A stretch of 64,000 nucleotides of DNA from a virus (IMGVR_UViG_3300026274_000001); one strand, 5' to 3'. Shown: positions 27,863 to 52,938, counted from the stretch's first letter. Notes: generated from the letters alone by a model not told the origin. Program-made: numbers and translations.

Positions 27863-27906
27863 TGGAGTAAAATGATCTCAGGTGGAGTAAAATGATCTCA
27901 GGTGGA
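27863..27906 (+). repeat. 20-bp perfect tandem duplication containing SD and ATG
   Basis: TGGAGTAAAATGATCTCAGG x2 plus TGGA. Confidence 0.95.
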
Positions 27907-28248
27907 TTTCCTATTGGCATGATACCTATGCTTACCGCTGTTCAGGGTCGTCAGACGGGTAAAACATCAATGATGCGTGACTTCTGGGCTTACACTTTGA
28001 AAGAAAAATGGAATACTTTACGAAGGCAGAAAAACGGCACCTGGAAGATCACCATTTCTAATGACATCGAAGAAAAGATCGAATGGTGTCGTAATGCTTT
28101 GGGTGATGGTGGTAACGGTAAGAAAAGCCTATGGCGTATCAACTGGATTGAATATAGGGCTCTCCAAGGCTATGAGGGAGAGTCGATTACACTTTGGCTT
28201 AAAGATGACGCGGCGGTGCTCTTTAAGCTTCGTTGGTGTGTAGGATGA
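27892..28248 (+). CDS. array member 2
   Basis: LWLKDDAAVLFKLRW. Confidence 0.75.
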   Translation: MISGGFPIGMIPMLTAVQGRQTGKTSMMRDFWAYTLKEKWNTLRRQKNGTWKITISNDIEEKIEWCRNALGDGGNGKKSLWRINWIEYRALQGYEGESITLWLKDDAAVLFKLRWCVG

Positions 28249-28508
28249 GGTTGTATCAATACAAAGCAGCAGGTAGTAACTGGTATGTCATAGCAACGTT
28301 CAATGTTATTAAACACGGTGACTATAGCGTTCAGGATATGATCGAGGCTTGGTGCACTGACACGTACGACGCAACCACAAAAACCAAATGCTATGTTGGG
28401 ATGGATGCTCCAGTTGAGAGCACTTGGGGTTTTGGTAGTGGTGACTATTATTTCAAAAACGAATCTGATGCATTTATGTTCGTACTTAGGTGGTCTGGTG
28501 AAAAGTAG
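28245..28508 (+). CDS. array member 3
   Basis: YFKNESDAFMFVLRW. Confidence 0.75.
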   Translation: MRLYQYKAAGSNWYVIATFNVIKHGDYSVQDMIEAWCTDTYDATTKTKCYVGMDAPVESTWGFGSGDYYFKNESDAFMFVLRWSGEK

Positions 28509-28806
28509 CTATAAAGTTGATGTGACCAACTATTTTTCTGTTGGGTGTAAGAACAAGAGTAATCGTATGGTTATTCGTCAAACGATAGTAGACTGGTTGG
28601 AAGCCCACGTTGGTTCAGTGGTTAAACGATTTGCAGACGGTACGCCCAACGCAGGTGATGGTTGGCAGTTTATCAGTAAGACTGAAATAGCTTCAATTGA
28701 ATATGCAGATAACATTGGTCAAACCTACAAGGAAAAGCTCTATCTTGTATTTGATGATGACACCCAAGCAATGCATTTTAAACTGTCATGGAGTGAACGA
28801 TTATGA
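28498..28806 (+). CDS. array member 4
   Basis: LVFDDDTQAMHFKLSW; GTG start inferred. Confidence 0.75.
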   Translation: MKSSYKVDVTNYFSVGCKNKSNRMVIRQTIVDWLEAHVGSVVKRFADGTPNAGDGWQFISKTEIASIEYADNIGQTYKEKLYLVFDDDTQAMHFKLSWSERL

Positions 28807-29120
28807 ATGAAGAACAGGTGAAGTATAAATTTTGGGTCCCTATTTTCGCTGAAGATTCTACGCGTCTTGCCCTGCAACGATGGTTGACTACTCATGTGGG
28901 TCCACTAGTCAGCAGCAACATGAAAACCCAGACCTATGAAGGTAATGGTTGGAGTATGACCGCAGTTGATGGTGATCAACAATACGTAACTATGGATTGG
29001 ATGTTTGAACATGACGAACCAGATCCTAGAGTGTTCGTTTCCGCATATGACGTCACTATCACACACTCTTCACACGCACTACAGTTCAAACTAACGTGGG
29101 CGGATGCACGCGAAAGCTGA
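28803..29120 (+). CDS. array member 5
   Basis: ITHSSHALQFKLTW. Confidence 0.8.
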   Translation: MNEEQVKYKFWVPIFAEDSTRLALQRWLTTHVGPLVSSNMKTQTYEGNGWSMTAVDGDQQYVTMDWMFEHDEPDPRVFVSAYDVTITHSSHALQFKLTWADARES

Positions 29121-29167
29121 TAAACAAAGGCGAGGCGTAGAATTGCGGTGTTATCATATAGTATCAA

Positions 29168-29470
29168 ATGAAGAGGCCTATGATGATAGACATCACTGAA
29201 AATATTCTAGAAGCCCCCGCCCCCAATCAGGATCGACTGCAAGAGATACTTGATTGGTTAGAACAGTGCATTGGGCCGAAGTTATCAGATTCGATCGTAG
29301 TAGAGACGGGTACACAGCAACACAAGGGGATAGGATGGGAGTTGGGGTGTATGCGACCTCCCGGGAAATCCAAGCGGAATACGCTGACGTTCTATGTCAA
29401 ATTTGACGACGAACGAGATGAATTAATGTTCAAATTGATATGGTCGAACTCGACATCACAGATTACCTAG
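29168..29470 (+). CDS. array member 6
   Basis: VKFDDERDELMFKLIW. Confidence 0.8.
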   Translation: MKRPMMIDITENILEAPAPNQDRLQEILDWLEQCIGPKLSDSIVVETGTQQHKGIGWELGCMRPPGKSKRNTLTFYVKFDDERDELMFKLIWSNSTSQIT

Positions 29471-29754
29471 ATGAAAATGAAGGTAATATTAAAATAATAA
29501 AAGAGTGGTTGCAGGTAAATGTGGGTGGATTGGACTTAGATTGGTATCTCAAATTCGGCCAATCAGCACATGAGTCAGAAGGACGAGGTAAGGGTTGGCA
29601 AATATCATTTGCGATTGGTAAAACTTTTCGTGCTCATCGATATCCCCTTACATTACTCAGCTGGATATTAAAAATAGAAGATGATCTGGTTGCGGTACAA
29701 TTCAAAATGATCTGGCCTGAATCACCAGTAATCACATCAACCGTCTCATCATAA
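29440..29754 (+). CDS. array member 7
   Basis: KIEDDLVAVQFKMIW; ATG lies within the upstream A|TGG. Confidence 0.8.
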   Translation: MVELDITDYLDENEGNIKIIKEWLQVNVGGLDLDWYLKFGQSAHESEGRGKGWQISFAIGKTFRAHRYPLTLLSWILKIEDDLVAVQFKMIWPESPVITSTVSS

Positions 29755-29756
29755 TC

Positions 29757-30023
29757 ATGAAGTTTGATATTAAAGAAACATGGAACACTTTCTTTTCTGG
29801 TAGGGCCGGAAAAGAAAAATGTCTAGACCTATTGGAATGGTTAGATGAATATGTTGGTTGGAGGATGTCAGATTCTATTCACGTTTTGCCAATTATGGGT
29901 AGAGGATGGAGGATTGAATCTGGTATTGTTCAAAACCCAGATTCACAATATCCGTCATTCGGTGTATGGCTGGAGATCGACGATGATACTTGTGCTGTAC
30001 AATACAAATTGGCATTTGAATAA
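29757..30023 (+). CDS. array member 8
   Basis: EIDDDTCAVQYKLAF. Confidence 0.8.
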   Translation: MKFDIKETWNTFFSGRAGKEKCLDLLEWLDEYVGWRMSDSIHVLPIMGRGWRIESGIVQNPDSQYPSFGVWLEIDDDTCAVQYKLAFE

Positions 30024-30337
30024 TGCAACGAATTAGAATTAATAATTTCCAGATGTTGCCAGAAATTATAGAATGGCTTGACGAGCATGTTGGTGACACT
30101 GTAGATATCACAAAGCGTTACGATGTGATACATGAAGCTATTGGTGAAGGTTGGTCGATAGTTAGAACGTTGATTAGTTATCCGGCATCAGACGCGGTAT
30201 TGCGTGAAATTGGATTCAAAAATGTCAATGAAGTTAGCTCTGAATATCGTAATAATTTGTATCCAAAGGCTATTCATTATTATATCAATTTCGATGACGA
30301 TACACAAGCAGTTCAATTTAAACTAAGCTATGATTAA
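30023..30337 (+). CDS. array member 9
   Basis: INFDDDTQAVQFKLSY. Confidence 0.8.
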   Translation: MQRIRINNFQMLPEIIEWLDEHVGDTVDITKRYDVIHEAIGEGWSIVRTLISYPASDAVLREIGFKNVNEVSSEYRNNLYPKAIHYYINFDDDTQAVQFKLSYD

Positions 30338-30632
30338 CGTTGATAAGTACCTTTTTACCGGCAAGTACAAGGATTTGGTGCTGGAAGAATATTATCGTAT
30401 GATCGATTGGTTGGCTGAAAATATTTCTGAGCCTGCACAGGGTTACGAATACGCTTACAACAAAACTGCTCTTGGTCGTCATGGTCCTGGTTGGGAATTG
30501 AGATTGCATTGGATCGGTGAAAAAAGCCCAAAACCCACCGACGGCTTTGGAGTGTCGCGTCGTTCTGTTGAATGGTGTATATTTATTGACGATGACCAAT
30601 ATGCGGTAATGTTCAAATTGATGTGGCCATGA
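30330..30632 (+). CDS. array member 10
   Basis: FIDDDQYAVMFKLMW. Confidence 0.8.
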   Translation: MINVDKYLFTGKYKDLVLEEYYRMIDWLAENISEPAQGYEYAYNKTALGRHGPGWELRLHWIGEKSPKPTDGFGVSRRSVEWCIFIDDDQYAVMFKLMWP

Positions 30633-30874
30633 CGTTTGACATATCTGAATATATAGATAATCAGTATACCATGGAGTCGTTGTTTAAGCTCCGTGATATT
30701 TTGATCAATGAAGTTGGAATACAACATGAATATAAATCCCAGTATCAGTTATCTGGTGATGGCTGGTGGATTAGTGCTCAGAGCCGTAATCGGTTGGTTA
30801 CTGACCCAATTAAATGGGAACTATATATACAGGATGATAACCTTGCATTGATGTTCAAATTAAAATGGCTATAG
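30629..30874 (+). CDS. array member 11
   Basis: YIQDDNLALMFKLKW. Confidence 0.8.
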   Translation: MTFDISEYIDNQYTMESLFKLRDILINEVGIQHEYKSQYQLSGDGWWISAQSRNRLVTDPIKWELYIQDDNLALMFKLKWL

Positions 30875-31101
30875 AAATAACAAAAATTATAAACAAGCAT
30901 ATGGTGGGTCGTCCAGTCGATTCCATGCCATTGTGCATTAGTTGGCTTTACGACGTAATCGGTAAGCAACGAAAACCAGAAGCCAAACTCGAGGGAGTTT
31001 GGTGTGGCCGCGGTTGGGTTGTATACGAGCGTGATACTCGATACATTCTAGAATGTATCGAACCACACAGTGAACAGCGATTTTCTCTTATTTGGTTATG
31101 A
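30865..31101 (+). CDS. array member 12
   Basis: CIEPHSEQRFSLIW. Confidence 0.75.
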   Translation: MAIEITKIINKHMVGRPVDSMPLCISWLYDVIGKQRKPEAKLEGVWCGRGWVVYERDTRYILECIEPHSEQRFSLIWL

Positions 31102-31406
31102 CTCCCGTCGATGTAAAACGATGGACGCTGCGCGATTTTCCGATGATGCACAAGTATACGGAAGCAGTCATACTACAAGAAATAATAGACTGGCTATATG
31201 AATATATGGGTCCCGGCAAAAAGGGTCCATATCCTACCGACAACGGTCCTGACTATACAGTTGCTCACTATGGACCAGGCTGGTTCATGGAAGTTCGAGC
31301 ATATCAGGGATATTGGTCGGATGGTACGTATCACCCTTGCTGTGCTCATTTTATACACTTCGACAGTGACGCACATGAAGTTATGTTCAGGTTGATATGG
31401 CGCTAG
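31098..31406 (+). CDS. array member 13
   Basis: HFDSDAHEVMFRLIW. Confidence 0.8.
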   Translation: MTPVDVKRWTLRDFPMMHKYTEAVILQEIIDWLYEYMGPGKKGPYPTDNGPDYTVAHYGPGWFMEVRAYQGYWSDGTYHPCCAHFIHFDSDAHEVMFRLIWR

Positions 31407-31621
31407 ATATAACAAAGATGGGATTAGCTGGTATAGGTCTTGATGTAATAAAATGGCTATGCCAGAATGTAGGTGGCTTCCATAATCTCAAAAACACTTG
31501 GTTGTATGATCATGAAATGATGAAAGGCGATGGATGGAAAATTTACACCTATCACAAAACCACGTTCATCTCAATTGATGATCCGCTACTTGAAATGCAA
31601 TTTAAACTCGTATGGCTTTAG
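31397..31621 (+). CDS. array member 14
   Basis: SIDDPLLEMQFKLVW. Confidence 0.8.
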   Translation: MALDITKMGLAGIGLDVIKWLCQNVGGFHNLKNTWLYDHEMMKGDGWKIYTYHKTTFISIDDPLLEMQFKLVWL

Positions 31622-31905
31622 AAATAGAAAAACTAACAAAGTGTGTTAGATCTCAAATGGGTGTCCCAACCGTAACTGGGATAATCATGAAGTTGCCAGA
31701 CGATATACTATCTTGGTTAACGGGTCATATTGGACCAATTGAACGTGAACGTTCTGAACCATACAATAACGTGTGGAAGAATGTCGTTTATAAAGGTAAT
31801 GGCTGGCGTACCTCAGCTCACGCCGAATTGTATTCAAGGTGCGGTTATTGGCTTTATATAGATGACGATGCATTGGCACTACAGTTCAAATTAACATGGC
31901 TTTAG
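31612..31905 (+). CDS. array member 15
   Basis: YIDDDALALQFKLTW. Confidence 0.8.
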   Translation: MALEIEKLTKCVRSQMGVPTVTGIIMKLPDDILSWLTGHIGPIERERSEPYNNVWKNVVYKGNGWRTSAHAELYSRCGYWLYIDDDALALQFKLTWL

Positions 31906-32180
31906 ACATCAGTACCCTTTCAGAAGTTCGAGTCATTGACAAAGCGCGAGGTTTGCATGTACTCGAAATCAATAATAGGGTCATCAAATGGTTACATGAT
32001 AATGTTGGTGATATGACTAGTGTAAAGGAAACTTACTATCTGACCCTTTGCCATACTATTCACTATCGTGGTGATGGTTGGCAAATTGAACCACCTGACA
32101 GCACACGATTGGAGAAAGGCTATCGAGTTACCATAATCAATGATACGCTTGCTCTACAATTTAAATTAACATGGCTATAG
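31896..32180 (+). CDS. array member 16
   Basis: TIINDTLALQFKLTW. Confidence 0.8.
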   Translation: MALDISTLSEVRVIDKARGLHVLEINNRVIKWLHDNVGDMTSVKETYYLTLCHTIHYRGDGWQIEPPDSTRLEKGYRVTIINDTLALQFKLTWL

Positions 32181-32524
32181 ACATAACGTACAAAATCCTT
32201 GGTGAAGTGTTTCGAGGATCGAAATTGAGTGATGACGACACTAGCATAATTAAATGGCTAGTCAAGAACGTTGGACCTACTACAGAGCAGCCAGATATGG
32301 AAGTAGTTCCTACTGGTACTGAACATCGTATCTATAATTGTGGCGTGGGTTGGGTGATTGACTATCAGAATATTAGGATTGATAATCCTTCCAAACGAGA
32401 AGAACATAATGTTGGACTATGTGCACCCTTGGGGCCGTGGCAACCAACTATTACTATTTCACAATACCGCTTGCATATAGCGGATGAAACATTAGCAGTA
32501 CAATTTAAACTTCGGTGGATGTAA
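32171..32524 (+). CDS. array member 17
   Basis: HIADETLAVQFKLRW. Confidence 0.8.
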   Translation: MAIDITYKILGEVFRGSKLSDDDTSIIKWLVKNVGPTTEQPDMEVVPTGTEHRIYNCGVGWVIDYQNIRIDNPSKREEHNVGLCAPLGPWQPTITISQYRLHIADETLAVQFKLRWM

Positions 32525-32778
32525 TGAGTGACACAAAGACGGTAGTTGAGATCACGAAATATATTGTTCAAACTGATAATCAACTAAGTGCAATTCGAGA
32601 TTGGCTATTAGAAAACGTTGGGCCTTCTGAGACGGCAGGTTCGCCAGTATGTCGTGAGGGTGAAGGATGGCGTATTGAATACAAGAGTGAGATGGTTGGG
32701 GTCGCCTATACCTATCACATCTTGGTTGAATTTGCAAGAGCAGACGAAGCGGTGATGTTCAAGTTAATGTGGCCATGA
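32524..32778 (+). CDS. array member 18
   Basis: EFARADEAVMFKLMW. Confidence 0.8.
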   Translation: MSDTKTVVEITKYIVQTDNQLSAIRDWLLENVGPSETAGSPVCREGEGWRIEYKSEMVGVAYTYHILVEFARADEAVMFKLMWP

Positions 32779-33041
32779 AAAAACAAACGCGATTCAACCT
32801 TACCAAAAAGATTGCAATACACGATCCGATAGTAGAAGAAATTTATCAATGGTTGAATCAGCAAGTTGGCTTAGAAACAGCGAAACCCAGATTGTCAAGT
32901 GGTTATGACTATGTGGGTTTAGGATGGAAGATATACATATCTCCACTAGCTCACGGTAGCTTTAAACCCCAATACTACCTAGTGTTTGATGATTCCAATC
33001 AAGCGCTAATGTTCAAATTACGATGGTCAGCGTTAATCTAA
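32775..33041 (+). CDS. array member 19
   Basis: VFDDSNQALMFKLRW. Confidence 0.8.
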   Translation: MKKQTRFNLTKKIAIHDPIVEEIYQWLNQQVGLETAKPRLSSGYDYVGLGWKIYISPLAHGSFKPQYYLVFDDSNQALMFKLRWSALI

Positions 33042-33274
33042 ATATTCTCTCGCGAGATGTCCCCCTACATAAACGAATAGAACATCGAAACGAGATGCGT
33101 GCTTGGCTGGCCATGAATGTGGGGCCGCGCGGGGTTACACCTTATGGACAGGATCTACACAATTCTGGTGCCGGTTGGCATATACGATGCGATCATGAAG
33201 TAACACCAATCACTTGGTATGCTGATATTGACGACGAGCAATTGGCATTAATGTTCAAACTATGTTTTTCTTGA
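33023..33274 (+). CDS. array member 20
   Basis: DIDDEQLALMFKLCF. Confidence 0.8.
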   Translation: MVSVNLNILSRDVPLHKRIEHRNEMRAWLAMNVGPRGVTPYGQDLHNSGAGWHIRCDHEVTPITWYADIDDEQLALMFKLCFS

Positions 33275-33276
33275 TT

Positions 33277-33510
33277 ATGATAGATCTCACACGTCACCTT
33301 AGCTGTGTCAACTTTTCCGAACGATTGTACAACGTCGTGAGCTGGCTCATTACCAATATTGGACCTATGAAGTTTGATAAGCTTGGGCACACGCAAGGTC
33401 ACGGATGGCTACTAATTAGTAAGACTGACACCGAGTATTCATATTACGAGTACAAGTTATATTTTGATGAACCAAATGATGAACTTATGTTTAAGCTAGC
33501 CTGCTTATGA
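33277..33510 (+). CDS. array member 21
   Basis: YFDEPNDELMFKLAC; start 33262 or 33277. Confidence 0.75.
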   Translation: MIDLTRHLSCVNFSERLYNVVSWLITNIGPMKFDKLGHTQGHGWLLISKTDTEYSYYEYKLYFDEPNDELMFKLACL

Positions 33511-33767
33511 CATCATCCGTTTATCGACTTACTGATATCAATCAAATTATCAACCCTAGTCCAATGCTTTCATGGCTTGATGCCAATGTTGGCCCCCTTA
33601 CCTTCCAATACAAAACACTGCTGGATAACGATATTGCGGCTGAGGGTATCAATTGGCGCGTAGTGAAATTGTATCAACGTATTGGCGATGGTTCATATCA
33701 ATATTCAATATTCATTGAATTTCAAAACTCCACCGATCTTATTCACTTCAAACTTGTATGGGGATAA
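33507..33767 (+). CDS. array member 22
   Basis: EFQNSTDLIHFKLVW. Confidence 0.8.
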   Translation: MTSSVYRLTDINQIINPSPMLSWLDANVGPLTFQYKTLLDNDIAAEGINWRVVKLYQRIGDGSYQYSIFIEFQNSTDLIHFKLVWG

Positions 33768-34045
33768 TCGATGTCACCAATATGTTTTATGATGGACTGT
33801 ACAGCCCCAAATACGATACGATGCTTGCATGGTTGGAAGAGTGTTGTGGTCCTAGAATATTCGGAAAACGAGAGCCAAATGCAAGTGGCATAATTCCAGT
33901 GTGCCAAAGTAGCAATTGGCGGCTATTTGCTATATCATACCCCTTACGTAGAGCATACCCCGATATACAATTTCGATCATCTGGATGGGTCATTGAGTTT
34001 GATAACGATAGTGACCTTCTGATGTTTACGCTTAGATGGAAATGA
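33758..34045 (+). CDS. array member 23
   Basis: EFDNDSDLLMFTLRW. Confidence 0.8.
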   Translation: MGIIDVTNMFYDGLYSPKYDTMLAWLEECCGPRIFGKREPNASGIIPVCQSSNWRLFAISYPLRRAYPDIQFRSSGWVIEFDNDSDLLMFTLRWK

Positions 34046-34052
34046 TAGACGC

Positions 34053-34394
34053 ATGTACGCAATTGATGTTAGTGATAGGACTGATGGGCGAGCCGATGCA
34101 TTTATTAAAATGCTTGATTGGTTGAACGAGGTAGTCGGCCCTCTTATATCGGAAGATCAGAGAACGGCAGAAATTAACGACAATGGTTCAAAACGTTTTT
34201 TCAAAATTGAAGGTACCGGTTGGTATTATGAGTACTGTTCAATACGTATTGGCGCCAATGATACTCGTGAATTTAAACTTCCAAAATTCTTCCATGACGC
34301 TGGTCAACGTGCAGGTGGTAGCACCCTATATACATCTAAAGTCATGTACATAGAAGACCCTATTCATGCTGTGGCATTCAAATTGACATGGTAA
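34053..34394 (+). CDS. array member 24
   Basis: YIEDPIHAVAFKLTW. Confidence 0.8.
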   Translation: MYAIDVSDRTDGRADAFIKMLDWLNEVVGPLISEDQRTAEINDNGSKRFFKIEGTGWYYEYCSIRIGANDTREFKLPKFFHDAGQRAGGSTLYTSKVMYIEDPIHAVAFKLTW

Positions 34395-34732
34395 GAATAG
34401 ATCTACATGGCATACGCACCCAGACTAGTCTTGAATGCTGGTTCGAGTGGCTAGATCATAATATTGCGCCGCGAACGGTCACCAATCATGATCCTAACGA
34501 GTCATTACCTAGCGATGTTGTCGATCATCATTTTTACACCGGTGGTCCTGGGTGGCAATTTCATTATGTAATGACGACATTGGCACCAGCAGATTGTGAT
34601 AGAAATCTTTATGAATGTGTTTTTGCTGCAGAGGAACGCGGACCAGCAGAATTACATTATGTTGCCATGTATTTTGAATTCGAAAATGATGCAGAAGCCG
34701 TTATGTTTAAACTAATAATGAACGAGATCTGA
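34388..34732 (+). CDS. array member 25
   Basis: EFENDAEAVMFKLIM. Confidence 0.8.
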   Translation: MVRIDLHGIRTQTSLECWFEWLDHNIAPRTVTNHDPNESLPSDVVDHHFYTGGPGWQFHYVMTTLAPADCDRNLYECVFAAEERGPAELHYVAMYFEFENDAEAVMFKLIMNEI

Positions 34733-34734
34733 CC

Positions 34735-35064
34735 ATGCATGTCTTTAATGCATTCTTGCTTGGTGACGTAACAACTTTGTTTGATTGGCTTGAAAGTAAC
34801 GTAGGTGACTTTGAATATGAAAGCCCCAAACACCCACCAGAGCCGCATTCATACTACTTTGAACGTCGTGGTGCTGGATGGCGATTTAAGTACATTACCA
34901 CCTTGAATCATATGGACATTTACCCAGACGATTTTGCACATAAGCAATGGCATGTTGTGGGTGCCGAATCGTTTGATGTTCGCCATTATGCAGTAGTAGA
35001 ACTTGATAGTGATGCCGATGCAGTTATGTTTAAACTTCGGTGGACCGGCCATGCATCTATTTAA
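34735..35064 (+). CDS. array member 26
   Basis: ELDSDADAVMFKLRW; closest to member 25. Confidence 0.8.
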   Translation: MHVFNAFLLGDVTTLFDWLESNVGDFEYESPKHPPEPHSYYFERRGAGWRFKYITTLNHMDIYPDDFAHKQWHVVGAESFDVRHYAVVELDSDADAVMFKLRWTGHASI

Positions 35065-35317
35065 TGTAACTAAATGGGCTAGAGAGTACGATTGGTTTAC
35101 GTTCGAGAATTGGCTAAACGATAATATTGGTCCTAGAACTGCTCTCACGATGCAAAGCAAGCGCCGCTTCATGACTTATATTGGCGACGGTTGGCAGATG
35201 AAAGTCGTTTATGGTACACGACCACAACGAGAACGATGGAATATAGTACAGGCTATTGTTAAAATAGGCGAAGAGTATGATGCGGCTGCTGTGATGTTTA
35301 AACTTCAATGGATGTGA
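35051..35317 (+). CDS. array member 27
   Basis: EEYDAAAVMFKLQW. Confidence 0.8.
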   Translation: MHLFNVTKWAREYDWFTFENWLNDNIGPRTALTMQSKRRFMTYIGDGWQMKVVYGTRPQRERWNIVQAIVKIGEEYDAAAVMFKLQWM

Positions 35318-35318
35318 A

Positions 35319-35576
35319 ATGGCGACGTTTGAAAACTTCATTGATGGATGGGACATTGCAAAGGCCGAGATGGTCAAGGCATGGTTGATTCAAAACATTG
35401 GTCCGCAGCTTGAAAAAGTTAAAGGATATGAATCAGTTGGTGCTGGTTGGAGTTTGACTGCATCTTCTCCTGGGTTCGTGCATAATAACCATACCCTTGA
35501 CTTCGTTGCTCCATTGTGGATACTATCTATCGAAGATGATGTATTAGCATTGCAATTCAAGCTAACCTGGCTGTAA
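35319..35576 (+). CDS. array member 28
   Basis: SIEDDVLALQFKLTW. Confidence 0.8.
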   Translation: MATFENFIDGWDIAKAEMVKAWLIQNIGPQLEKVKGYESVGAGWSLTASSPGFVHNNHTLDFVAPLWILSIEDDVLALQFKLTWL

Positions 35577-35591
35577 TTAGTTAGAAACAAG

Positions 35592-35616
35592 AAAGCCACC
35601 CGAAGGTGGCTTTTTT
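35592..35616. terminator. bidirectional intrinsic terminator
   Basis: AAAGCCACC-CGAA-GGTGGCTTTTTT between convergent genes. Confidence 0.85.
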
Positions 35617-35630
35617 ACAACTAGACGGGT

Positions 35631-35756
35631 TTATTGACCCTTGTATACAGCAGCTGGTGTGTTTGTGTCTACTGGAGTAGCTTTAACGTGCACCATTACG
35701 TATACCAGACCGACCACCAAAACAGCAGCAACGATCATAGCGATTTTCTTCATCAT
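35631..35756 (-). CDS. 41-aa signal-anchor microprotein (not in ORF track)
   Basis: MMKKIAMIVAAVLVVGLVYVMVHVKATPVDTNTPAAVYKGQ*; TAAATA upstream at 35803-35808. Confidence 0.65.
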   Translation of the reverse strand: MMKKIAMIVAAVLVVGLVYVMVHVKATPVDTNTPAAVYKGQ

Positions 35757-35854
35757 GATGAAATTCTTTTAGAAGTTTGAGGGCCAAAATTAGCTCTCCT
35801 TCTATTTAAGGTGAAAATCGAGTAGGTAAAATCATTATTTTATATTGTAACCAA

Positions 35855-36130
35855 ATGGCAACAATTGACATATCTGAGTTGGCGACATCAGATATACATA
35901 AGTACTACGATTTGCTAGATTGGCTTGAAACTGAAGTAGGTCAGCATGTAAAGAAGGGTAACAACCATGCTATTTGTATTTTTGAATCAAAAGACTATTC
36001 GATTCAAAGATCATTTGGTATTGGCTGGCATCTTGATTACATCGTTAACGAGGATATGACCCATCGTGTCCTAACGGTGTATGACGAATTGAAAGCATTG
36101 ATGGTTAAATTGATTTTTTGCGGCGCATGA
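35855..36130 (+). CDS. array member 29
   Basis: VYDELKALMVKLIF. Confidence 0.75.
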   Translation: MATIDISELATSDIHKYYDLLDWLETEVGQHVKKGNNHAICIFESKDYSIQRSFGIGWHLDYIVNEDMTHRVLTVYDELKALMVKLIFCGA

Positions 36131-36414
36131 CTACTACTTTACCTATAAAGATAACAAATTCGATAGCATTAATTCCGTTCACTATGCATTGTGATAGGAA
36201 TAATCCTAATCGAGTAAACAAGTTTGGAAGAGAATTGCTTGAGGGTGGTTGGACTATTGTGCCGGCCCTTCGACACAATTTTCTGGTGTTAACTGATTGG
36301 TGTGCCGCCAATTTTGATCATGCTGACTTTGGTTACAATCTAGTAGTGCGAGCGTTCATCTTCAAGCATATAGCCGAGGCAGTCCAGTTCAAGCTTGCTT
36401 GCTTGGGGTCTTAG
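36127..36414 (+). CDS. array member 30
   Basis: IFKHIAEAVQFKLAC. Confidence 0.75.
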   Translation: MTTTLPIKITNSIALIPFTMHCDRNNPNRVNKFGRELLEGGWTIVPALRHNFLVLTDWCAANFDHADFGYNLVVRAFIFKHIAEAVQFKLACLGS

Positions 36415-36423
36415 TGCTATCAT

Positions 36424-45864: not shown

Positions 45865-46497
45865 TTATACTGTGATCGACTGGAATACTTGCGTGATAGC
45901 ACTGCCCGAGCTATCTTTAATAATAAAGCCTAAAGTATGGGTGCCAGAACTAAGTGTTAATGCAAAATTTGCTGGTGCACCATCCAGTACAGCGAAAGAT
46001 GTAATTGGTGTATTAATCACACTTCCATCAGTTACGTAACAAGTGTATTGTTTAGATGTGGTTGAACCAGAAACACTTATCAATGTTCCAGTATATTGGC
46101 CATTAGATAAATTGGTATTCGTAAGATACGCACCAGAGCTTGCGGTGAAAGTACTAGCAATGGAAGTTGCCGGATTATCCAGACTTAAAGTTACATTGAA
46201 CAGTTGACCAAGTGTTGGATAATAAGTATTTGGCAAAACCAATGTAACTTGACCGTCATTTACGTTGGTTTGTTGATATGTACCAACGCCATCTACGGAA
46301 AAAGTAAGAACACTAGCGTTAGTTCCAGTGTATTTTGAAAATTGTGCTGTAAAATTACCATTGAAATTCAAATATGGAACATTAATAGGTGGTGCAACTT
46401 CACCTACAATCGTAGTTAGCTTGACTACCATAGCTGCTAAGTCTTCAAGAGTAATGGATTGAGTGCTATTTGTTGGTATAACTGAAATATTAGCCAT
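45865..46497 (-). CDS. beta-rich virion surface / fibre-associated protein (putative)
   Basis: T/S/N/G-rich Ig-like composition; adjacent to the fibre gene. Confidence 0.6.
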   Translation of the reverse strand: MANISVIPTNSTQSITLEDLAAMVVKLTTIVGEVAPPINVPYLNFNGNFTAQFSKYTGTNASVLTFSVDGVGTYQQTNVNDGQVTLVLPNTYYPTLGQLFNVTLSLDNPATSIASTFTASSGAYLTNTNLSNGQYTGTLISVSGSTTSKQYTCYVTDGSVINTPITSFAVLDGAPANFALTLSSGTHTLGFIIKDSSGSAITQVFQSITV

Positions 46498-46580
46498 TTG
46501 TAATTTCCTGTATTAAATATTTTATTAATTTATGAAGGCATGGAAAGTGTTATGTTTTCCATGCCTTGTTTACTTACTAA

Positions 46581-47114
46581 TTACGTTGCTGACATCAAAC
46601 CCGCATTGATTAGCTTGGTCAACAATGCGTTGAAAGATCCTTGTGCTGATGCATCTGTCCAGCCTGAACCTTGTGACTGCAATGCTGCCATCTTAACAAC
46701 ACCTACTGTTGAAGTAGTTGCTGCTGGAGTTGCTGGAATAGCTGCGATAGCTGCTGCAACGAATGCTGTTGAAGCTGCGCCAGTTGTGCTGTTACCAAGA
46801 GTCAATGTTGGTACTGTTACTGTACCTGTGAATGTTGGTGATGCCAATGGTGCTGCACCAGTTACGTCAGCGATGGTCAGAACAACCGCACCTGAACGAC
46901 CAGCAACTGATGTAACACCAGATCCACCTGTTGGTGCTGTTGCTACGTATGCCAGTGATGCCCATGCTGTTGCGCCGTCACCAATCTTTGACTTGCCTGA
47001 GTCGGTTTCAACGCCGATTTCACCGTTTGCCAAAATTGTGTTTTCTGCTGTCCAATCTGCGGCTGTACCTGCACGACGCAGTGCTTGAACTCGATAAATG
47101 CCTGTAAGTGCCAT
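46581..47114 (-). CDS. short tail-fibre-like protein with Mtd-N/hyaluronidase-N-type domain
   Basis: RRAGTAADWTAEN.ILANGEIGVETDSGK.KIGDG.TAW..L.Y; VTSVAGRSGAV; APLASPTFTG. Confidence 0.8.
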   Translation of the reverse strand: MALTGIYRVQALRRAGTAADWTAENTILANGEIGVETDSGKSKIGDGATAWASLAYVATAPTGGSGVTSVAGRSGAVVLTIADVTGAAPLASPTFTGTVTVPTLTLGNSTTGAASTAFVAAAIAAIPATPAATTSTVGVVKMAALQSQGSGWTDASAQGSFNALLTKLINAGLMSAT

Positions 47115-47168
47115 TTTAAATCTCCGCATATTTGAGTAAAACCATTTTTACCCATACAATGCTTCTAT

Positions 47169-47174
47169 TATTTA
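47169..47174 (-). promoter_or_regulatory. T4-like late promoter core TAAATA
   Basis: TAAATA upstream of the fibre gene; the same core precedes 57685, 58497, 59994 and 35756. Confidence 0.5.
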
Positions 47175-47226
47175 CCTTTACTTAGCATATGGTAAAAAGA
47201 GGACTTTCCTCTGGTTTCAAAATACA

Positions 47227-47937
47227 ATGAAAACTAACGCATTTTTATATAAATGGACACAGCTTACCACTGGAAAATGGTATATAGGTTCAAGAACTAG
47301 AAAGGGTTGCCACCCAAATGATGGTTACTTGTGTTCTAGTAAAACAGTAAAACCGTTGATTGTATCCCATCCTGAAGAATGGAAAAGAGATATTCTGGTT
47401 GTTGGAAATCCGATTTATATTAGAGAAATAGAAACGACTTATTTGGTTAAGTTTGATGCGGCCAAGGATACTAATAGTTTTAATTTATCCAATTCTCATG
47501 GCAAATATTCTTTTACTGGACAAACTCATTCTGAAAAAACGAAATTAGCTATAAGTTTAGGTAATAAAGGAATAAAACGACCTGGTAGCGGTAATCGAAC
47601 CTCTAATAGAGGAAGTAGCGAAAATAGAGGAAATAAAAAATGTCACAAAGGCAAAAATAATCCTTGCTACGGTCGCACGGGCAAACTAAATCCGATGTTT
47701 AATAAAAAACATCCACCAGAAATGAAAAAGGTGCTATCCGATATCAAAATGGGTGGCAAGAATCCAAATTCTAAACGAGTACTAACACCCTTTGGCCATT
47801 ATGACACTCTGAAAGAAGCAGCACTTGCTTACAAAGTTTCGTCAAACACAATTAAGTATTGGATTACTACTAGTAGACTTGGATTCAGTTTTATAAATTT
47901 AGAAAAGAATAAAGAAGAACAGAGAAATGACAGATAA
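47227..47937 (+). mobile_element. free-standing homing endonuclease (GIY-YIG/Seg-like, NUMOD3 + NUMOD1)
   Basis: FLY.W....GKWYIGSR; HSEKTK..IS; NP.YG/NPMF repeats; C-terminal YDTLKEAA; AT-rich. Confidence 0.8.
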
Positions 47938-48697
47938 TACCAAGAAAACAGGTATGACAATTACAGTATCCGATGAATTGGTTGCTGACCTGAAGACCCT
48001 GCATGGCATTGATGCCGTTACCGAAATTGTTAATTCGGTAACATCAGAGCTTGAATTGGAATTAGAACAACCAAAAGAACCAGAACGTCGTGTGTTTTCT
48101 ATCGATGTTGGTAATATGACTCCTGAACAAGCCAAGGAAGCAATCACCGCAATTCAAAACAAATATGCCGCGCTTGATAGTGCATATAACCCCATGACTA
48201 TGGGCGAAGACTACTTTTTTGCACCTGCGCCAAAGAAGAAGTTTATGTCTACTAAGACATTTAATACTGATCGCGGATTGAGCTGCTGTTTCCGTCAATG
48301 GCGTGCCACCCATTCACATTGCTCAACACTGCACGGCTATTCAATCGGTGTGAAGTTTGTATTTGAATGTGAAGAACTGGACGAACGCAACTGGGTATTC
48401 GACTTTGGTGGTCTGAAGGATATTAAGAAATGGCTTGAGCATATGTTTGACCATACATGCTGTGTTGCAGAAGACGATCCATTGTTGGAACAATTTAAGG
48501 CATTTGCAGCAACTGGCGTTATGGACTTGCGGATTGTCCCAGGTGTAGGCTGTGAACGTTTTGCCGAAATGATTTTTGATCATGTCACTAAGGTGTTAGA
48601 TGATTCCCGCGATACTATGTTGAACAAGACTGCACGACTTAAGTCAGTCGAAGTCTTCGAACATGGTGCTAATTCGGCGATCGTTGAACGCGACTAA
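47927..48697 (+). CDS. queD: QueD-like 6-carboxy-tetrahydropterin synthase with portal-like N-terminal extension
   Basis: SCCFRQWRA.HSHC..LHGY, NWV.DFGGLK, FDH, GCE.FA, VEVFEH..NSA. Confidence 0.85.
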   Translation: MTDNTKKTGMTITVSDELVADLKTLHGIDAVTEIVNSVTSELELELEQPKEPERRVFSIDVGNMTPEQAKEAITAIQNKYAALDSAYNPMTMGEDYFFAPAPKKKFMSTKTFNTDRGLSCCFRQWRATHSHCSTLHGYSIGVKFVFECEELDERNWVFDFGGLKDIKKWLEHMFDHTCCVAEDDPLLEQFKAFAATGVMDLRIVPGVGCERFAEMIFDHVTKVLDDSRDTMLNKTARLKSVEVFEHGANSAIVERD

Positions 48698-48710
48698 TTC
48701 CAAATAGTAC

Positions 48711-48743
48711 TTGACTGCCATACTAGATGAACCTAGTATGGCA
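48711..48743 (+). promoter_or_regulatory. sigma70-type promoter inside an 11-bp perfect inverted repeat
   Basis: TTGACT-N17-TAGTAT; TGCCATACTAG/CTAGTATGGCA. Confidence 0.7.
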
Positions 48744-48777
48744 TCGTTACACACAAACTAACTGAGGAGAAAACAAA

Positions 48778-49470
48778 ATGGGCTTTAGCCTTACTGCTTC
48801 ATCCGTAAACTCGGCAATGATCCGTGTTTACAACTATGTCTTTGCTGCTCTGGTTCTCACTGGTGCGGTTGCATTCGGCGTAGCAAGTCAGCCGGCGTTT
48901 CTGAAGGTGTTGATGACCGGCGCCGCACAGATCGGTCTGATCGTACTGACGTTTGTATTACTGTTCAGTATCTCGTCGGTCCGTGAGTCAGAAAACGCGG
49001 TTGCTGCGAAGGTGATGTTTGGTGCATTTGCTGTTGTATGGGGACTTTTGTTCTCTGGCATTTTCGCCGCATATACGACTGCAAGTATTTTCGCTGCTTT
49101 GTTCTCTGCTGCGGTATTATTCCTGACTATGTCCGGATACGGTTACTTCACCAAACGTGACATCACGTCGTTCGGTCAATACTTGTTTATTGGCTTGATT
49201 GCAATCATTATCGCAAGTGTCGTTAACTTGTTTGTCGGTAGCAATACTGCATCATTGGTGATTTCAGGTTTTACTATCCTGTTGTTTATCGGTATCACCG
49301 CATGGGATGCGCAAACGATTCGTGATTCTTTGATGGCAGCTGAATCGCAAGCCAATCTTGATTACGTTGTTGTCAACGGTGCGATGTCCCTGTACTTGGA
49401 CTTCTTGAACTTGTTCTTGAGTTTCCTGCGCTTTATGGGTGTTCCAGTTCCTTCGTCAAGTAACGATTGA
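48778..49470 (+). CDS. Bax inhibitor-1/YccA family membrane protein
   Basis: MIRVYNY..., YGYFTKRD, TAWDAQ.I, GAMSLYLDFLNLFL..L; 7 TM. Confidence 0.92.
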   Translation: MGFSLTASSVNSAMIRVYNYVFAALVLTGAVAFGVASQPAFLKVLMTGAAQIGLIVLTFVLLFSISSVRESENAVAAKVMFGAFAVVWGLLFSGIFAAYTTASIFAALFSAAVLFLTMSGYGYFTKRDITSFGQYLFIGLIAIIIASVVNLFVGSNTASLVISGFTILLFIGITAWDAQTIRDSLMAAESQANLDYVVVNGAMSLYLDFLNLFLSFLRFMGVPVPSSSND

Positions 49471-49750
49471 TACAAAAGTAACACGGTAACAACTGGCATG
49501 GCCCCCTAGGGGGCCATCATACCATTCAGCTACTGGGTACTGAACTAATATCACCAGAGTAACCATGAGGGTTTGCTGACTTCTAATATATTCCAATATG
49601 GCAACAAAAACTATTGCATAGTTGCCACATATCTGTAGAATACGATTTAAGGTGCAGACATGCACTAAGCAACTGGCAAGTAAGCGCTCCGCGGCCAAGT
49701 TGTATCCTAAAAAGTGAGCGTTAGCAGTAACTGAGTAATTTTTAAAACAA

Positions 49751-50038
49751 ATGGCAACAAAGCAATCTACCCGTAGTGATCTGGAAAACTTCCTGGCTGG
49801 TCTTGACCTCGCAAACAAGCCTGTCATCCATGTAAATGGTAAGGAACACCCAACCGCAGTAGTCGTAGTTGACTTCGGTTCACCCCTCACGCAAGTCAAA
49901 CTCTCCCCTGAGCAAAACCAAGAACTCGCAGGCAAGCTGCGCAAGTTCGCCCGTGAACTAGTCAACAAGGATGCAAACCTGCGCATCTCGTCGGACAACT
50001 ACTTGGGCTTGATCTTCTGGGCGTCATCAGCACACTAA
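49751..50038 (+). CDS. hypothetical protein
   Basis: 95 aa followed by a terminator. Confidence 0.7.
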   Translation: MATKQSTRSDLENFLAGLDLANKPVIHVNGKEHPTAVVVVDFGSPLTQVKLSPEQNQELAGKLRKFARELVNKDANLRISSDNYLGLIFWASSAH

Positions 50039-50059
50039 GCTGAAGATAGCAACGATAAG

Positions 50060-50082
50060 AAACGCACTACGGTGCGTTTTTT
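50060..50082. terminator. bidirectional intrinsic terminator
   Basis: AAACGCAC-TACG-GTGCGTTTTTT between convergent units. Confidence 0.8.
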
Positions 50083-50368
50083 AATGAGCCAATGAATCAC
50101 AAAAGGTGAGTTTGAACATGACAGCATAGCTGATGCTACGAAAGCGATATTCGATCTTGTTTTGATTTGATATAGATGTGATGACGTTACAGTCATCAGT
50201 GTGGACGGTGAACTTGTAATCCACCCATACGTCATACTTGCCTACGTTCTCGTCAATCCAATCAGCAATCGTAGCTTGAACTTCAGGCAGGTTAGTAACC
50301 GTGACTGAATGTCGCCATACGTGCTTGGCGACATAGTTGGCGAAACGATTGCTAGATTTGCGAATCAT
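50081..50368 (-). CDS. FKLxW-family protein (minus cluster)
   Basis: IADWIDENVG...RFRSISYAVMFKLTF. Confidence 0.8.
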   Translation of the reverse strand: MIRKSSNRFANYVAKHVWRHSVTVTNLPEVQATIADWIDENVGKYDVWVDYKFTVHTDDCNVITSISNQNKIEYRFRSISYAVMFKLTFCDSLAH

Positions 50369-50400
50369 CAGAGCGGATACACAATAATACTACAGTATAG

Positions 50401-50643
50401 TTACTTTTGATCAGACCATGACAGTCTAAACATCATACCGCTAGCATCGGACTCGAACTTAACGTAGAACTTCATTTCTTCAGGCTCAACGTCTACTTCA
50501 TAGTCGGTGATGTTGTGCTCACTAGCCCAGGTCTTGAACGTGTCATTGAGTATTACTGTAACATTCAACAGATCGCTTGCCTCTTCAACTGGATCCAATT
50601 GAATGCGATATAACGAATCGGGTATAAGAAATTTCATGACCAT
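50401..50643 (-). CDS. FKLxW-family protein (minus cluster)
   Basis: KFESDASGMMFRLSW; ATG lies within the upstream A|TGG. Confidence 0.8.
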   Translation of the reverse strand: MVMKFLIPDSLYRIQLDPVEEASDLLNVTVILNDTFKTWASEHNITDYEVDVEPEEMKFYVKFESDASGMMFRLSWSDQK

Positions 50644-50891
50644 GTTAATTTGAACCTGATGGCTTCGGTTGCATCGTTAAAGTAAACATCTATAGCATGA
50701 CTCCCAGACTTCGATACTTCCCAGTCCCAGTCAACCCATTGTGCCCCAACAAGTTCTTCAAGCTCAGGCCTTATAATTTCATTTGGATCAGAAGTCACAA
50801 ATTCATTATCATTATCATCCTGTATTATACGCTCGCTTGGCCACGGCACGGTAACTGAATATGAATAGGCAGTAAATTCTTTTAATTTCAT
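50634..50891 (-). CDS. FKLxW-family protein (minus cluster)
   Basis: YFNDATEAIRFKLTW; ATGA overlap. Confidence 0.8.
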   Translation of the reverse strand: MKLKEFTAYSYSVTVPWPSERIIQDDNDNEFVTSDPNEIIRPELEELVGAQWVDWDWEVSKSGSHAIDVYFNDATEAIRFKLTWS

Positions 50892-51553
50892 TGTATGATT
50901 GGCTTGACTCTTGCTCGATCGTTCCAAGCAAGCTTGAACATTAAAGCCTCGTTTTCACTCTCAAATTCCGCGGTGAGACCAACATGAAACGTATTTATGG
51001 CATATTTTGAATCTAGCCGTTCAGTACACCATTCTTTTATTTCTTTGACAAAGGCATCCCACTCAATCCGTTCATTTTTGGTATCGAATGGGTACATCAC
51101 CTCCATTTTTAATCCCCTGGGGGCAAACCACCAGATCCTGAACGCCTCGTAGTCTTCCAAGTCCACAAACGTTAGGGTCCAGCATGAGTTTACTTGAGTT
51201 TGGGCAAATACGACATTCTTGCATTCAGTCTCAAACCAGGTATCAAACTCAGCACGTCGCCATACTCGATAGCCTTCAATCTCGCTAATTTGAAATGTTA
51301 GCTGTCGATCGTAAAACGCTGTCCTTCCGTACCAAGCCATATGATCTATTAATGGATCATATATCGCATAATAATTATGCTGGTTATGGGTAATATTACC
51401 CATAACAGGAAGATGCACTCCGTCAGTAGACATTACGAATAAGTTTGACGGACTATGACTATATGACTTAATAGGAACATGCGAGCCATTAACCATAATG
51501 GCATCCTGAGAGAAGTGCAGTGACCCAGGAATGATAGTAAGCTTGCTTGCCAT
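50888..51553 (-). CDS. FKLxW-family protein with two tandem domains
   Basis: TFVDLEDYEAFRIWW and EFESENEALMFKLAW in one ORF. Confidence 0.8.
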   Translation of the reverse strand: MASKLTIIPGSLHFSQDAIMVNGSHVPIKSYSHSPSNLFVMSTDGVHLPVMGNITHNQHNYYAIYDPLIDHMAWYGRTAFYDRQLTFQISEIEGYRVWRRAEFDTWFETECKNVVFAQTQVNSCWTLTFVDLEDYEAFRIWWFAPRGLKMEVMYPFDTKNERIEWDAFVKEIKEWCTERLDSKYAINTFHVGLTAEFESENEALMFKLAWNDRARVKPIIQ

Positions 51554-51915
51554 TATCCGTGCGTCAATTTAAATTTGATAGCATCCGTATCATCCATAAT
51601 CAGTCGATGAGATGACATCTGGAAAGGAATCTTACCATCCGTGATCCAATTCGGATCATCACCAATAGCCCTAACTCCCTTTTGGTATTGCAGTGAAGGA
51701 TATTCTTCCTTCAATTCTGCATAGACTGGGGCGGTCCAATCGAATGTTTCAGTAGTCATGTTGCGTGGATATGGCCGAATGATCCAAACCGTGAACGGAT
51801 CAATATCAACTTGCACGAAGTGATGAAGGCGATCACCCAAATAGTAATTCTTGTTTTGATGGTAGTCGTTTTCATTTTTGTAGACAACCAACTCATATTC
51901 TCTAATCAGTTTCAT
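51553..51915 (-). CDS. FKLxW-family protein (minus cluster)
   Basis: IMDDTDAIKFKLTH; start adjusted to ATG 51915. Confidence 0.75.
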   Translation of the reverse strand: MKLIREYELVVYKNENDYHQNKNYYLGDRLHHFVQVDIDPFTVWIIRPYPRNMTTETFDWTAPVYAELKEEYPSLQYQKGVRAIGDDPNWITDGKIPFQMSSHRLIMDDTDAIKFKLTHG

Positions 51916-52300
51916 AATTGGTATTGGATAAAAGGAATTGAACTTGTTCGGCCTCGTCATGAATTTCCACATGAAGATATTCACCGTCGTATGCATATTC
52001 AACACTGGTGTAATGACCGAACAGTAGTTTGCATATTTCACTATTCTCAAAGTCATGACATTTTTTCCATAGAGTCTTGTTGCGTATGACTTCTACTTTG
52101 GAATGCTTGATCACTTGGAACCGCAGTGGCGCACCATCAAGATGCGGGCAAACTTGAATAACTGTTGGAGTTGCCTCGATTTCCCAAGCAGGTATACCAC
52201 GAAATAGATAGCTATAGCTGGAACCTTGATGCATGGGAACATACGGATGCATTATCAGCAGACTGTGATGCTCTGGGAAACTTATTATTTTTCTTTTCAT
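51902..52300 (-). CDS. FKLxW-family protein (minus cluster)
   Basis: LHVEIHDEAEQVQFLL; start uncertain. Confidence 0.65.
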   Translation of the reverse strand: MKRKIISFPEHHSLLIMHPYVPMHQGSSYSYLFRGIPAWEIEATPTVIQVCPHLDGAPLRFQVIKHSKVEVIRNKTLWKKCHDFENSEICKLLFGHYTSVEYAYDGEYLHVEIHDEAEQVQFLLSNTNYETD

Positions 52301-52364
52301 ATCATAACGATGCACGTTTGTACCATTATGACATAGATGGCAAGTAATGTCTAGCCAGTTGTGA

Positions 52365-52721
52365 CTAGCAATACTTTAATTTGAAGTGAAGCGCCTCGGT
52401 ATCATCTTTGAATACCAAGTAATCATTGACTTCGCCCTCTAAGTAGGGAGCGTCTGGGTACAGATGCCGTTCTATTGTGATGCTAGGGAAATCTTCTTTG
52501 AAAAATGCAATGAGGGAAGATTCATTAATTGGTTGATATCTGGATTTGACCACAATCAACCGAAATTCAATCTGCTCCTCAAGCCGCAACACCAGTTCGG
52601 CATGATTCATCATTGCTCGCGAAATTGGTTCCACTTCTGACATTATCAGAACCGAATTGCCAAATTCCCTAAACATATGCAGCATGTCAGCTCCATCGTA
52701 ATCGAAACAATACTGCTTCAT
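52365..52721 (-). CDS. FKLxW-family protein (minus cluster)
   Basis: VFKDDTEALHFKLKY. Confidence 0.8.
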   Translation of the reverse strand: MKQYCFDYDGADMLHMFREFGNSVLIMSEVEPISRAMMNHAELVLRLEEQIEFRLIVVKSRYQPINESSLIAFFKEDFPSITIERHLYPDAPYLEGEVNDYLVFKDDTEALHFKLKYC

Positions 52722-52938
52722 TTTCCTGTGGTAGCTCTATGCGGATCCGTATAGAGCCGATAATTGCGAATGGATTCACGTACTCAAAAAGAATGCGATA
52801 TTCAATCGCATTCTCCTGTAACCACTGGTGAACTAATGGGAATTTATCCAATAGCCATGAATCACCAGGGTCACCTTTGTACGATCTATCCCAAAACGCG
52901 TCTTCATCTACGGTTGCTAGGATAAAGTTATTGCTCAT
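52687..52938 (-). CDS. FKLxW-family protein (minus cluster)
   Basis: VHQWLQEN...ELPQENEAVLFRLRW. Confidence 0.8.
   Translation of the reverse strand: MSNNFILATVDEDAFWDRSYKGDPGDSWLLDKFPLVHQWLQENAIEYRILFEYVNPFAIIGSIRIRIELPQENEAVLFRLRWS

Follow-up and report, generated by a model that had tools for sequence, protein, structure and literature searches.

The 64,000-nucleotide (nt) stretch of viral DNA analysed here (IMGVR_UViG_3300026274_000001, hereafter the window) carries on its plus strand, at 27892..41687, a tandem array of approximately 48 small genes (~75–137 amino acids, aa) that belong to one protein family, and at many junctions of this array the start codon of the next gene appears to be formed on the conserved tryptophan (Trp) codon close to the end of the preceding gene. 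We consider it likely, from sequence comparison, that these genes are coupled through their overlaps by reinitiation without a Shine-Dalgarno (SD) sequence, the tail of the family serving as the signal for the next gene. Family members share the C-terminus DDxxA(V/L)xFKLxW, the internal motifs WLxxNVGP and GxGW and the N-terminus M-x-phi-(D/E)-(I/V)-(T/S) (alignment A1).

A preliminary description of the window had claimed twelve such starts, and all twelve coordinates indeed read N|TGG, with TGG in the frame of the upstream gene and its TG inside the start codon of the next frame. The ten ATG sites on the plus strand (29440, 30865, 31397, 31612, 31896, 32171, 33023, 33758, 34388 and 40312) all read NNA|TGG, and in the upstream frame the Trp is followed by 0–8 codons and then by the stop. 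Overlaps of 10 nt are found at 30865..30874 (ATGGCTATAG, W-L-stop / M-A-I-E), 31397..31406 (ATGGCGCTAG, W-R-stop / M-A-L-D), 31612..31621 (ATGGCTTTAG, W-L-stop / M-A-L-E, the same junction being called in the relative L001), 31896..31905 (ATGGCTTTAG, W-L-stop / M-A-L-D), 32171..32180 (ATGGCTATAG, W-L-stop / M-A-I-D), 33758..33767 (ATGGGGATAA, W-G-stop / M-G-I-I-D) and 40312..40321 (ATGGCTCTAA, W-L-stop / M-A-L-K). Five junctions follow the stereotyped form ATGG-C(T/G)N-TAG that had been reported for them, giving M-A-(L/I)-(D/E)-I, and in four of these five a second in-frame stop lies no more than two codons after the TAG; wherever a Trp-codon junction ends in TAG, the next base is A, so that a four-base reading of UAGG has no bearing on these junctions. 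The shortest overlap, ATGGTAA at 34388..34394, has Trp as the last residue. The longest, of 31 nt at 29440..29470, begins with an ATG that uses the TG of the Trp codon at 29441-29443, the upstream tail reading S-N-S-T-S-Q-I-T and the other frame M-V-E-L-D-I-T-D-Y. The 19-nt overlap at 33023..33041 also has its ATG on the Trp codon (upstream tail W-S-A-L-I-stop); some orthologues of this gene (M-V-S-V-N-L) in other samples begin M-F-S-V-N-L or M-F-Y-V-N-M, so that their start cannot lie on TGG and the type of junction must switch between orthologues.

In all ten downstream frames, for which every in-frame start was listed, the Trp-codon ATG comes first, and the next in-frame start lies 7–61 codons downstream, where its use would delete the conserved x-phi-D/E-I-T/S strand. 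Because they are the sole starts that preserve this N-terminal strand of the next protein, the A|TGG codons at the ten plus-strand sites are supported as putative genuine starts. The other two claimed sites stand only in part: at 40049..40055 (GTGGTAA) the N|TGG is present, while its use as a GTG start is doubtful, since a rival GTG at 40127 fits the family register and gives M-Y-V-N-L; and at 50634..50643 on the minus strand (ATGGTCATGA) the Trp-codon ATG (-10) is present, an ATGA start (-4) located 6 nt downstream being equally possible.

For comparison beyond the window, a degenerate DNA pattern for A-x-M-F-K-L-x-W that left the wobble base and the post-Trp sequence unconstrained retrieved 120 IMG/VR contig stretches, many from contigs of 400–600 kb, in which an iterated profile recognised 332 family members outside the window; only L001 (94% identical) and L042 (~77%) resemble the window at the DNA level. 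When the ATG located furthest upstream near the stop was taken for each of 91 external pairs of adjacent members, it fell on the Trp codon in 24 pairs (15 of them with a 10-nt overlap) and was an ATGA in 27; the public gene calls in L001 and L002 likewise give 10-nt overlaps. Junctions were also counted independently of gene calls, as positions at which both frames are open for at least 60 codons. Within the window the ratio of -10 to -4 overlaps was then 8:8 downstream of family members and 1:13 downstream of other genes (P=0.017), and in the external set it was 33:93 as against 30:321 (odds ratio 3.8, P=2e-6), with approximately 20 of the 30 external 'non-family' -10 cases ending in ...FKLxW-x-stop, i.e., being members missed by the profile. 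The putative Trp-codon start is confirmed as a property of the family that recurs in unrelated huge-phage contigs.

Based on curated starts, the 47 junctions of the array comprise twelve at -4, seven at -10, five at -1, six gaps of 1–2 nt, one each at -7, -8, -11, -14, -19, -29 and -31, and ten larger gaps; in other words the genes overlap at 31 of the 47 junctions and are separated by 1–2 nt at six more, as is typical of stop/start-overlap arrangements. The Trp-codon junctions listed above fall at -10 (seven), -7, -19 and -31 and thus outside the canonical enriched spacings of -4, -1 and -8. The form ATGG-NNN-stop (-10) is the second commonest junction of the family after ATGA, which is unusual, since a review of translational coupling names only -4, -1 and -8 as enriched and other overlaps as disfavoured (PMC12548453). 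The downstream gene lies in the -1 frame at 24 of 29 window junctions and at 89 of 113 overall, a relation that -4, -1 and -10 overlaps all entail. An NTG start in this frame shares its TG with the beginning of an upstream TGN codon, for which Cys and Trp are the only sense options, and overlaps of 7, 10, 13 nt etc. are normally rare because such a codon is required; a conserved Trp one residue before the stop (the post-Trp tail has a length of 1 in 177 of 308 family members) would meet this requirement for free.

What remains to be supplied is the A before the Trp codon, which is present in 16 of 30 window members as compared with an expectation of 10.4 based on how these residues are encoded across the array (binomial P=0.027). 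In members whose -1 frame is open for at least 50 codons and which have no ATGA/GTGA or TAATG-type start, the codon preceding Trp tends to end in A for every type of residue (ACA in 11/14, AAA in 7/7, GTA in 5/5, GCA in 4/4 and ATA in 4/4; pooled 35/43, P=5e-12 against 30%, with a background of 19–47%), a subset that is partly circular, because any gene needs some start, and that does show an apparent placement of the start on the Trp codon instead of further downstream. Similarly, of 27 members that end in W-x-stop, are open in the -1 frame and lack another start close by, 23 have an ATG on the Trp. In one orthologous subfamily, represented by 29168/29440 in the window and by genes in L041 and L082, i.e., in three divergent contigs, the Trp-codon start has been kept despite a shift of the upstream stop (the Trp is followed by 8, 20 and 15 codons, respectively).

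A second kind of codon choice is seen where a -4 or -1 start exists. At such junctions an Arg before the Trp is encoded by AGG in 34 of 49 cases (69%), whereas AGG accounts for 11% of Arg codons elsewhere in these genes and for 7% of those preceding an internal Trp in long open reading frames (ORFs) of the same contigs, and a Leu before this AGG is NTG (TTG or CTG) in 81% as against 39% otherwise (P=1e-7). Written as NTG-AGG-TGG, Leu-Arg-Trp yields GAGGTGG at 2–6 nt before ATGA or TAATG, all six bases of GAGGTG being complementary to the 3' end of the 16S rRNA. Since Thr, Lys and Ala codons before Trp show no comparable G bias, GAGGTGG is best regarded as an SD-like signal and not as a GTG start; an excess of A/G at open -1 frames (P=0.0007) was considered as evidence of GTG starts and this was rejected, the excess being mostly due to AGG. 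Tails of the form TTG/CTG-AGG-TGG before ATGA or TAATG were observed in the family-gene runs of L057, L077, L118, L100 and L011, and six loci carry both encodings, the Trp-codon start and GAGGTGG. In the window itself, the weaker form (A/C)GG-TGG stands 4–7 nt before the start at three plus-strand junctions: AGG-TGG (Arg-Trp; SD-like AGGTGG) at 28488..28500, 4 nt before the candidate start GTG 28498 (-6.4 kcal/mol), and CGG-TGG (GGTGG) both at 32514..32526, 5 nt before the TAATG start at 32524 (-5.1 kcal/mol), and at 35039..35053, 7 nt before ATG 35051 (-5.1 kcal/mol). These biases support the view that the family tail carries nucleotide-level initiation signals for the next gene, putatively in two forms, the Trp-codon start or the Leu-Arg-Trp SD.

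The Trp-codon starts have no SD, their anti-SD duplex energy being -3.2 kcal/mol or weaker and mostly near 0. A duplex of -4 kcal/mol is reached by 25% of family starts, 26% of large non-family genes and 15% of all ATGs, which means that the scarcity of SDs noted earlier is true of the family but is a feature of the genome as a whole and is not specific to it. The possibility that phages with Trp-codon starts and those with GAGGTGG differ in their overall use of SDs was rejected, as a duplex of -6 kcal/mol or stronger precedes 29% and 30% of long ORFs in the respective contigs, at equal GC content.

It had also been suggested that part of the conservation of the Trp and of the N-terminal motif reflects dual coding, and this has not been borne out for either. 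The Trp is kept in 90% of members with a closed -1 frame and in 94% of those with an open one, and D/E-I-T/S is also present in genes that follow gaps (35855, 29168 and 34053), the first of these after a gap of 278 nt; in the predicted structural model both are structural elements. Being kept without overlap and structural in the model, neither is explained by dual coding; the protein motifs simply happen to permit the overlap. What the genetic code does constrain is residues 2–4 in a -10 overlap, where residue 2 has to be GNN (A/V/G/D/E) and residue 3 NTA or NTG (L/I/V/M), and where GNN (D/E) at residue 4 is allowed by a TAG stop only, which accounts for M-A-(L/I)-(D/E) and for the preference for TAG (seven of the array's nine TAG stops lie in overlaps of at least 7 nt). 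Dual coding does apply to the variable post-Trp tail of the 29168 subfamily (STSQI, LTSHL), in which the conservation of TSQI/TSHL, unlike that of the Trp itself, is a shadow of the N-terminus of the next gene (F-D-I-T).

We propose that the protein would require a Trp as its penultimate residue (FKLxW-x-stop) and an N-terminal beta-strand (M-x-phi-D/E-I-T/S), and that with neighbours stacked in the -1 frame the conserved Trp would offer a start that costs no more than a synonymous A at the wobble position before it. Ten genes of the window and many in other huge phages would use this ATG, mostly in overlaps of 10 nt, also of 7, 19 and 31 nt, while relatives whose start is ATGA or TAATG would mostly write NTG-AGG-TGG and thereby place the SD-like GAGGUGG just upstream. 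A ribosome terminating on A-UGG-CUN-UAG would have its P site on CUN and its A site on the stop, with the AUG 4 nt back (1 nt back for ATGG-TAA, 2 nt forward for ATGA); it would slip back these 4 nt and reinitiate without an SD, and long runs of genes would in this way be translated serially from a polycistronic RNA. Reinitiation without an SD fits the data because there is precedent for it in overlapping gene pairs, SDs are absent, slippery sites are lacking and the start regions are open: experiments in E. coli and Haloferax have demonstrated coupling of overlapping pairs (PMC6728339), the 45 nt preceding each of the ten junctions contain no in-frame slippery heptamer X XXY YYZ, and the predicted unpaired probability is higher in the Trp-codon start regions than at random positions of the array (0.54 vs 0.44, P=0.009). 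Coupling by RNA unfolding was rejected as having no support, the starts not being sequestered. Of the built-in coupler envisaged in the preliminary description, the codon biases thus support tail-borne signals for the next gene, and termination-reinitiation would be the inferred means by which they act; the further statement that any new copy would be expressed automatically is trivial, as it would hold for any tandem duplication.

With regard to transcription, the first 27 genes of the array precede its only long gap (35577-35854, 278 nt) and contain no gap above 50 nt, and no terminator-like site stands out on the plus strand between 27.9 and 35.6 kb. A GC-rich palindromic hairpin of 9 bp lies inside the long gap at 35592..35613, is terminator-like on both strands and is followed by a gene (35855) without an SD; it probably acts as a terminator and would divide the array into two transcription units. 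The whole array is covered by assemblies of four soil metatranscriptome libraries, whose contigs, one of them 12.5 kb long, bridge many junctions, and in all four the contigs at ~39.2-43.2 kb are 4–15 times deeper than those at 26.5-38.5 kb; these contigs and differences in depth hint at RNA. The deeper region (39200-43200) holds divergent F-x-F...DA..F.L.W members and the genes that follow them.

Several observations weigh against coupling by reinitiation as we propose it. According to the test proposed in the preliminary description, an A before TGG should have been commoner in arrayed than in other members, and outside the window the two frequencies are the same (34% and 33%), the bias being visible only after junctions are divided according to the availability of another start. 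The GAGGUGG-ATGA spacing of only 2–3 nt is short for a classical SD, and the start sites themselves were deduced from conservation only. The contigs from the RNA libraries may derive from DNA, and a contig does not prove a single transcript. The open, A/U-rich context of the starts would equally permit de novo, uncoupled initiation, and a star-like tree leaves room for shared descent of the five stereotyped, adjacent junctions, to whose genes the four most similar paralogues belong.

The first of the alternatives implied here is that the A|TGG starts are used by free ribosomes, de novo and independently of an SD, and that the overlaps reflect nothing other than tight packing. This would agree with the low use of SDs across the genome, with the predicted openness of the start regions and with the G-poor, A/U-rich stretch that FKL codons create just upstream. 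We nevertheless regard it as unlikely, given that overlapping pairs tested so far have mostly been tightly coupled (PMC6728339), that 27 consecutive genes are nowhere separated by more than 50 nt and that no promoter or terminator signal within this run rises above background, and that a terminating ribosome is located only 4 nt from the AUG.

Passive descent, in which tandem duplication multiplied a single ancestral junction that has simply failed to decay since, so that the five stereotyped junctions represent one event without selection of their own, has in our judgement only a slight chance of being correct. The five do lie within six adjacent genes, the most similar paralogues (33-42% identity) are those at 31397, 31612, 31896 and 32171, and some shared descent among the four stereotyped genes is likely on the basis of these identities. 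However, the paralogues are saturated (median identity 22%, ~3 changes per site) and an unconstrained wobble A would have been randomised, genes with Trp-codon starts form no cluster on the tree, itself unresolved (9 rows with 8 changes, the same as after shuffling), the same type of junction occurs in many contigs without DNA similarity to the window, and the A-ending codon is found across five different residues. That the Trp ATGs are not starts at all, the genes being initiated downstream or at non-canonical codons or joined by frameshifting or read-through into multi-domain proteins, is extremely improbable, for although alternatives exist at two sites (GTG 40127 for 40049, and the ATGA 6 nt downstream for 50643), the next start at the ten ATG sites would remove a conserved strand, there is no in-frame slippery heptamer, a second stop closely follows the TAG at four of the five stereotyped junctions, and the database homologues are single-domain proteins of 70–130 aa with the same N-termini.

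Reinitiation at the Trp codon would not require a new class of mechanism, and the Trp-codon start is a fairly ordinary variant of the well-known stop/start-overlap coupling by termination-reinitiation, whose described forms are ATGA (-4), TAATG/TGATG (-1) and NTGNNTGA (-8) (Huber et al. 2019, PMC6728339; Huber et al. 2023, PMC10666635; review, PMC12548453). As in those cases, the genes are co-directional and in different frames, the start lies a few nt from the stop and an SD is often dispensable, and the array itself also contains the canonical types at -4 (12 junctions) and -1 (5 junctions). It differs in that its Trp-codon junctions are at -10 (also -7, -19 and -31) and need an upstream Trp or Cys codon, in that the start would need a short backward movement of the ribosome, and in that this start is anchored on a conserved residue of the family and hence recurs family-wide. 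There is also a likeness to reinitiation in RNA phages (coat-lysis of MS2/fr; scanning model, PMC12548453), where the terminating ribosome takes the nearest start. That system, though, concerns one regulatory junction in a tiny RNA genome, whereas in the array the junction is repeated among 48 genes of a DNA phage. Work by Adhin and van Duin in 1990 reportedly addressed the backward reach of reinitiating ribosomes, for which the nearest start may lie upstream of the stop. The NTG-AGG-TGG of the relatives, giving GAGGUGG before ATGA/TAATG, resembles the SDs that coupled pairs carry within the 3' end of their first gene (PMC6728339), and unlike these it is written in three conserved residues by means of the rare AGG.

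A stronger reading, in which L-x-W plus stop has evolved as a portable initiation cassette, up to ~27 genes are expressed by serial reinitiation and the junction is a seam for the shuffling of members, seems to us rather improbable. If it were true, a single nonsense mutation would be polar on every downstream gene, and gain, loss and shuffling of members of this hypervariable small-protein family in huge phages would take place at the shared junction. Serial reinitiation, should it hold, would make at least 27 genes depend on one entry point and would fix their stoichiometry. Gene callers applied to these huge phages should look for the starts of this large, unannotated family on the Trp codon and should accept overlaps of 7, 10, 13 nt etc. 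without penalty where the upstream codon is TGG. The family would also be a case in which a protein motif and translation signals occupy the same three codons, with selection visible in synonymous choice (the A-ending codon and the rare AGG).

A profile built from clear members recognised 37 reading frames in the window, including one at 20,038-20,307 (+) and a group on the minus strand at 50,081-52,736. None of 32 members matched Pfam-A, and PHROGs gave no match above threshold (a single weak hit, E=0.0036). The AlphaFold model obtained from the paralogue alignment is a confident one (predicted local distance difference test score 88.5) and has an alpha/beta fold in which residues 2–4 form the first strand and the Trp terminates the C-terminal helix; no clear match to a solved fold was found (best Foldseek E against the PDB 0.2, best VIA-align Z 5.7), and matches in the ESM Atlas were to viral hypothetical clusters only (template modelling score 0.63-0.66). 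An exhaustive profile search gave 441 family representatives (clusters at 50% identity, E <= 0.001), with 9–25 matches in each of the complete phage genomes of 400–470 kb, and we found no description of the family in the jumbo-phage literature. A pattern search built on alignment A3 yielded 32 hits, none of which was confirmed by tblastn. The closest pair of paralogues in the window shares 42% identity (median 22%), and the maximum-likelihood tree of 30 paralogues is star-like with terminal branches of ~3 changes per site; the paralogues appear to be ancient and saturated, with no recent duplicates in the window.

The large genes flanking the array are T4-like replication genes encoding the large and medium subunits of topoisomerase II, RNA ligase and ribonucleotide reductase. 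Since the large subunit of its topoisomerase shares 62% identity with the counterpart in Sinorhizobium phage Phosso (469 kb) and 54% with the one in Agrobacterium phage Atu_ph07 (490 kb), the window is assigned to an uncultured soil jumbo phage of the clade of these two phages, and the public runs that contain it are soil and peat metagenomes and metatranscriptomes. Phosso, which is in culture, has five weak family matches, few and dispersed, and no -10 junction within the two regions inspected. Searches of 50,697 phage records with 7 kb of the array (megablast) and with one member (tblastn) gave no match. A tmRNA-like gene predicted by ARAGORN is situated at 1133-1524 of the window, with the tag peptide ANDNSFAIAA.

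Some minor features of the array were also observed. Its last six genes (40312-41687) have in common with the core family only the C-terminal part G-F-(R/K)-F..(E/D)A..F.L.(W/Y) and differ in a Trp-rich N-terminal half, forming a sub-family inside the array. In the assemblies of two RNA libraries (X3, X5) an in-frame insertion of 27 nt follows position 30775 and falls in the family gene 30629-30874, constituting a length polymorphism of this member between strains. Finally, the family gene 38289-38531 ends in the stop context TAG-G (38529-38532), and reading TAGG as one codon would add nine residues before the next stop.

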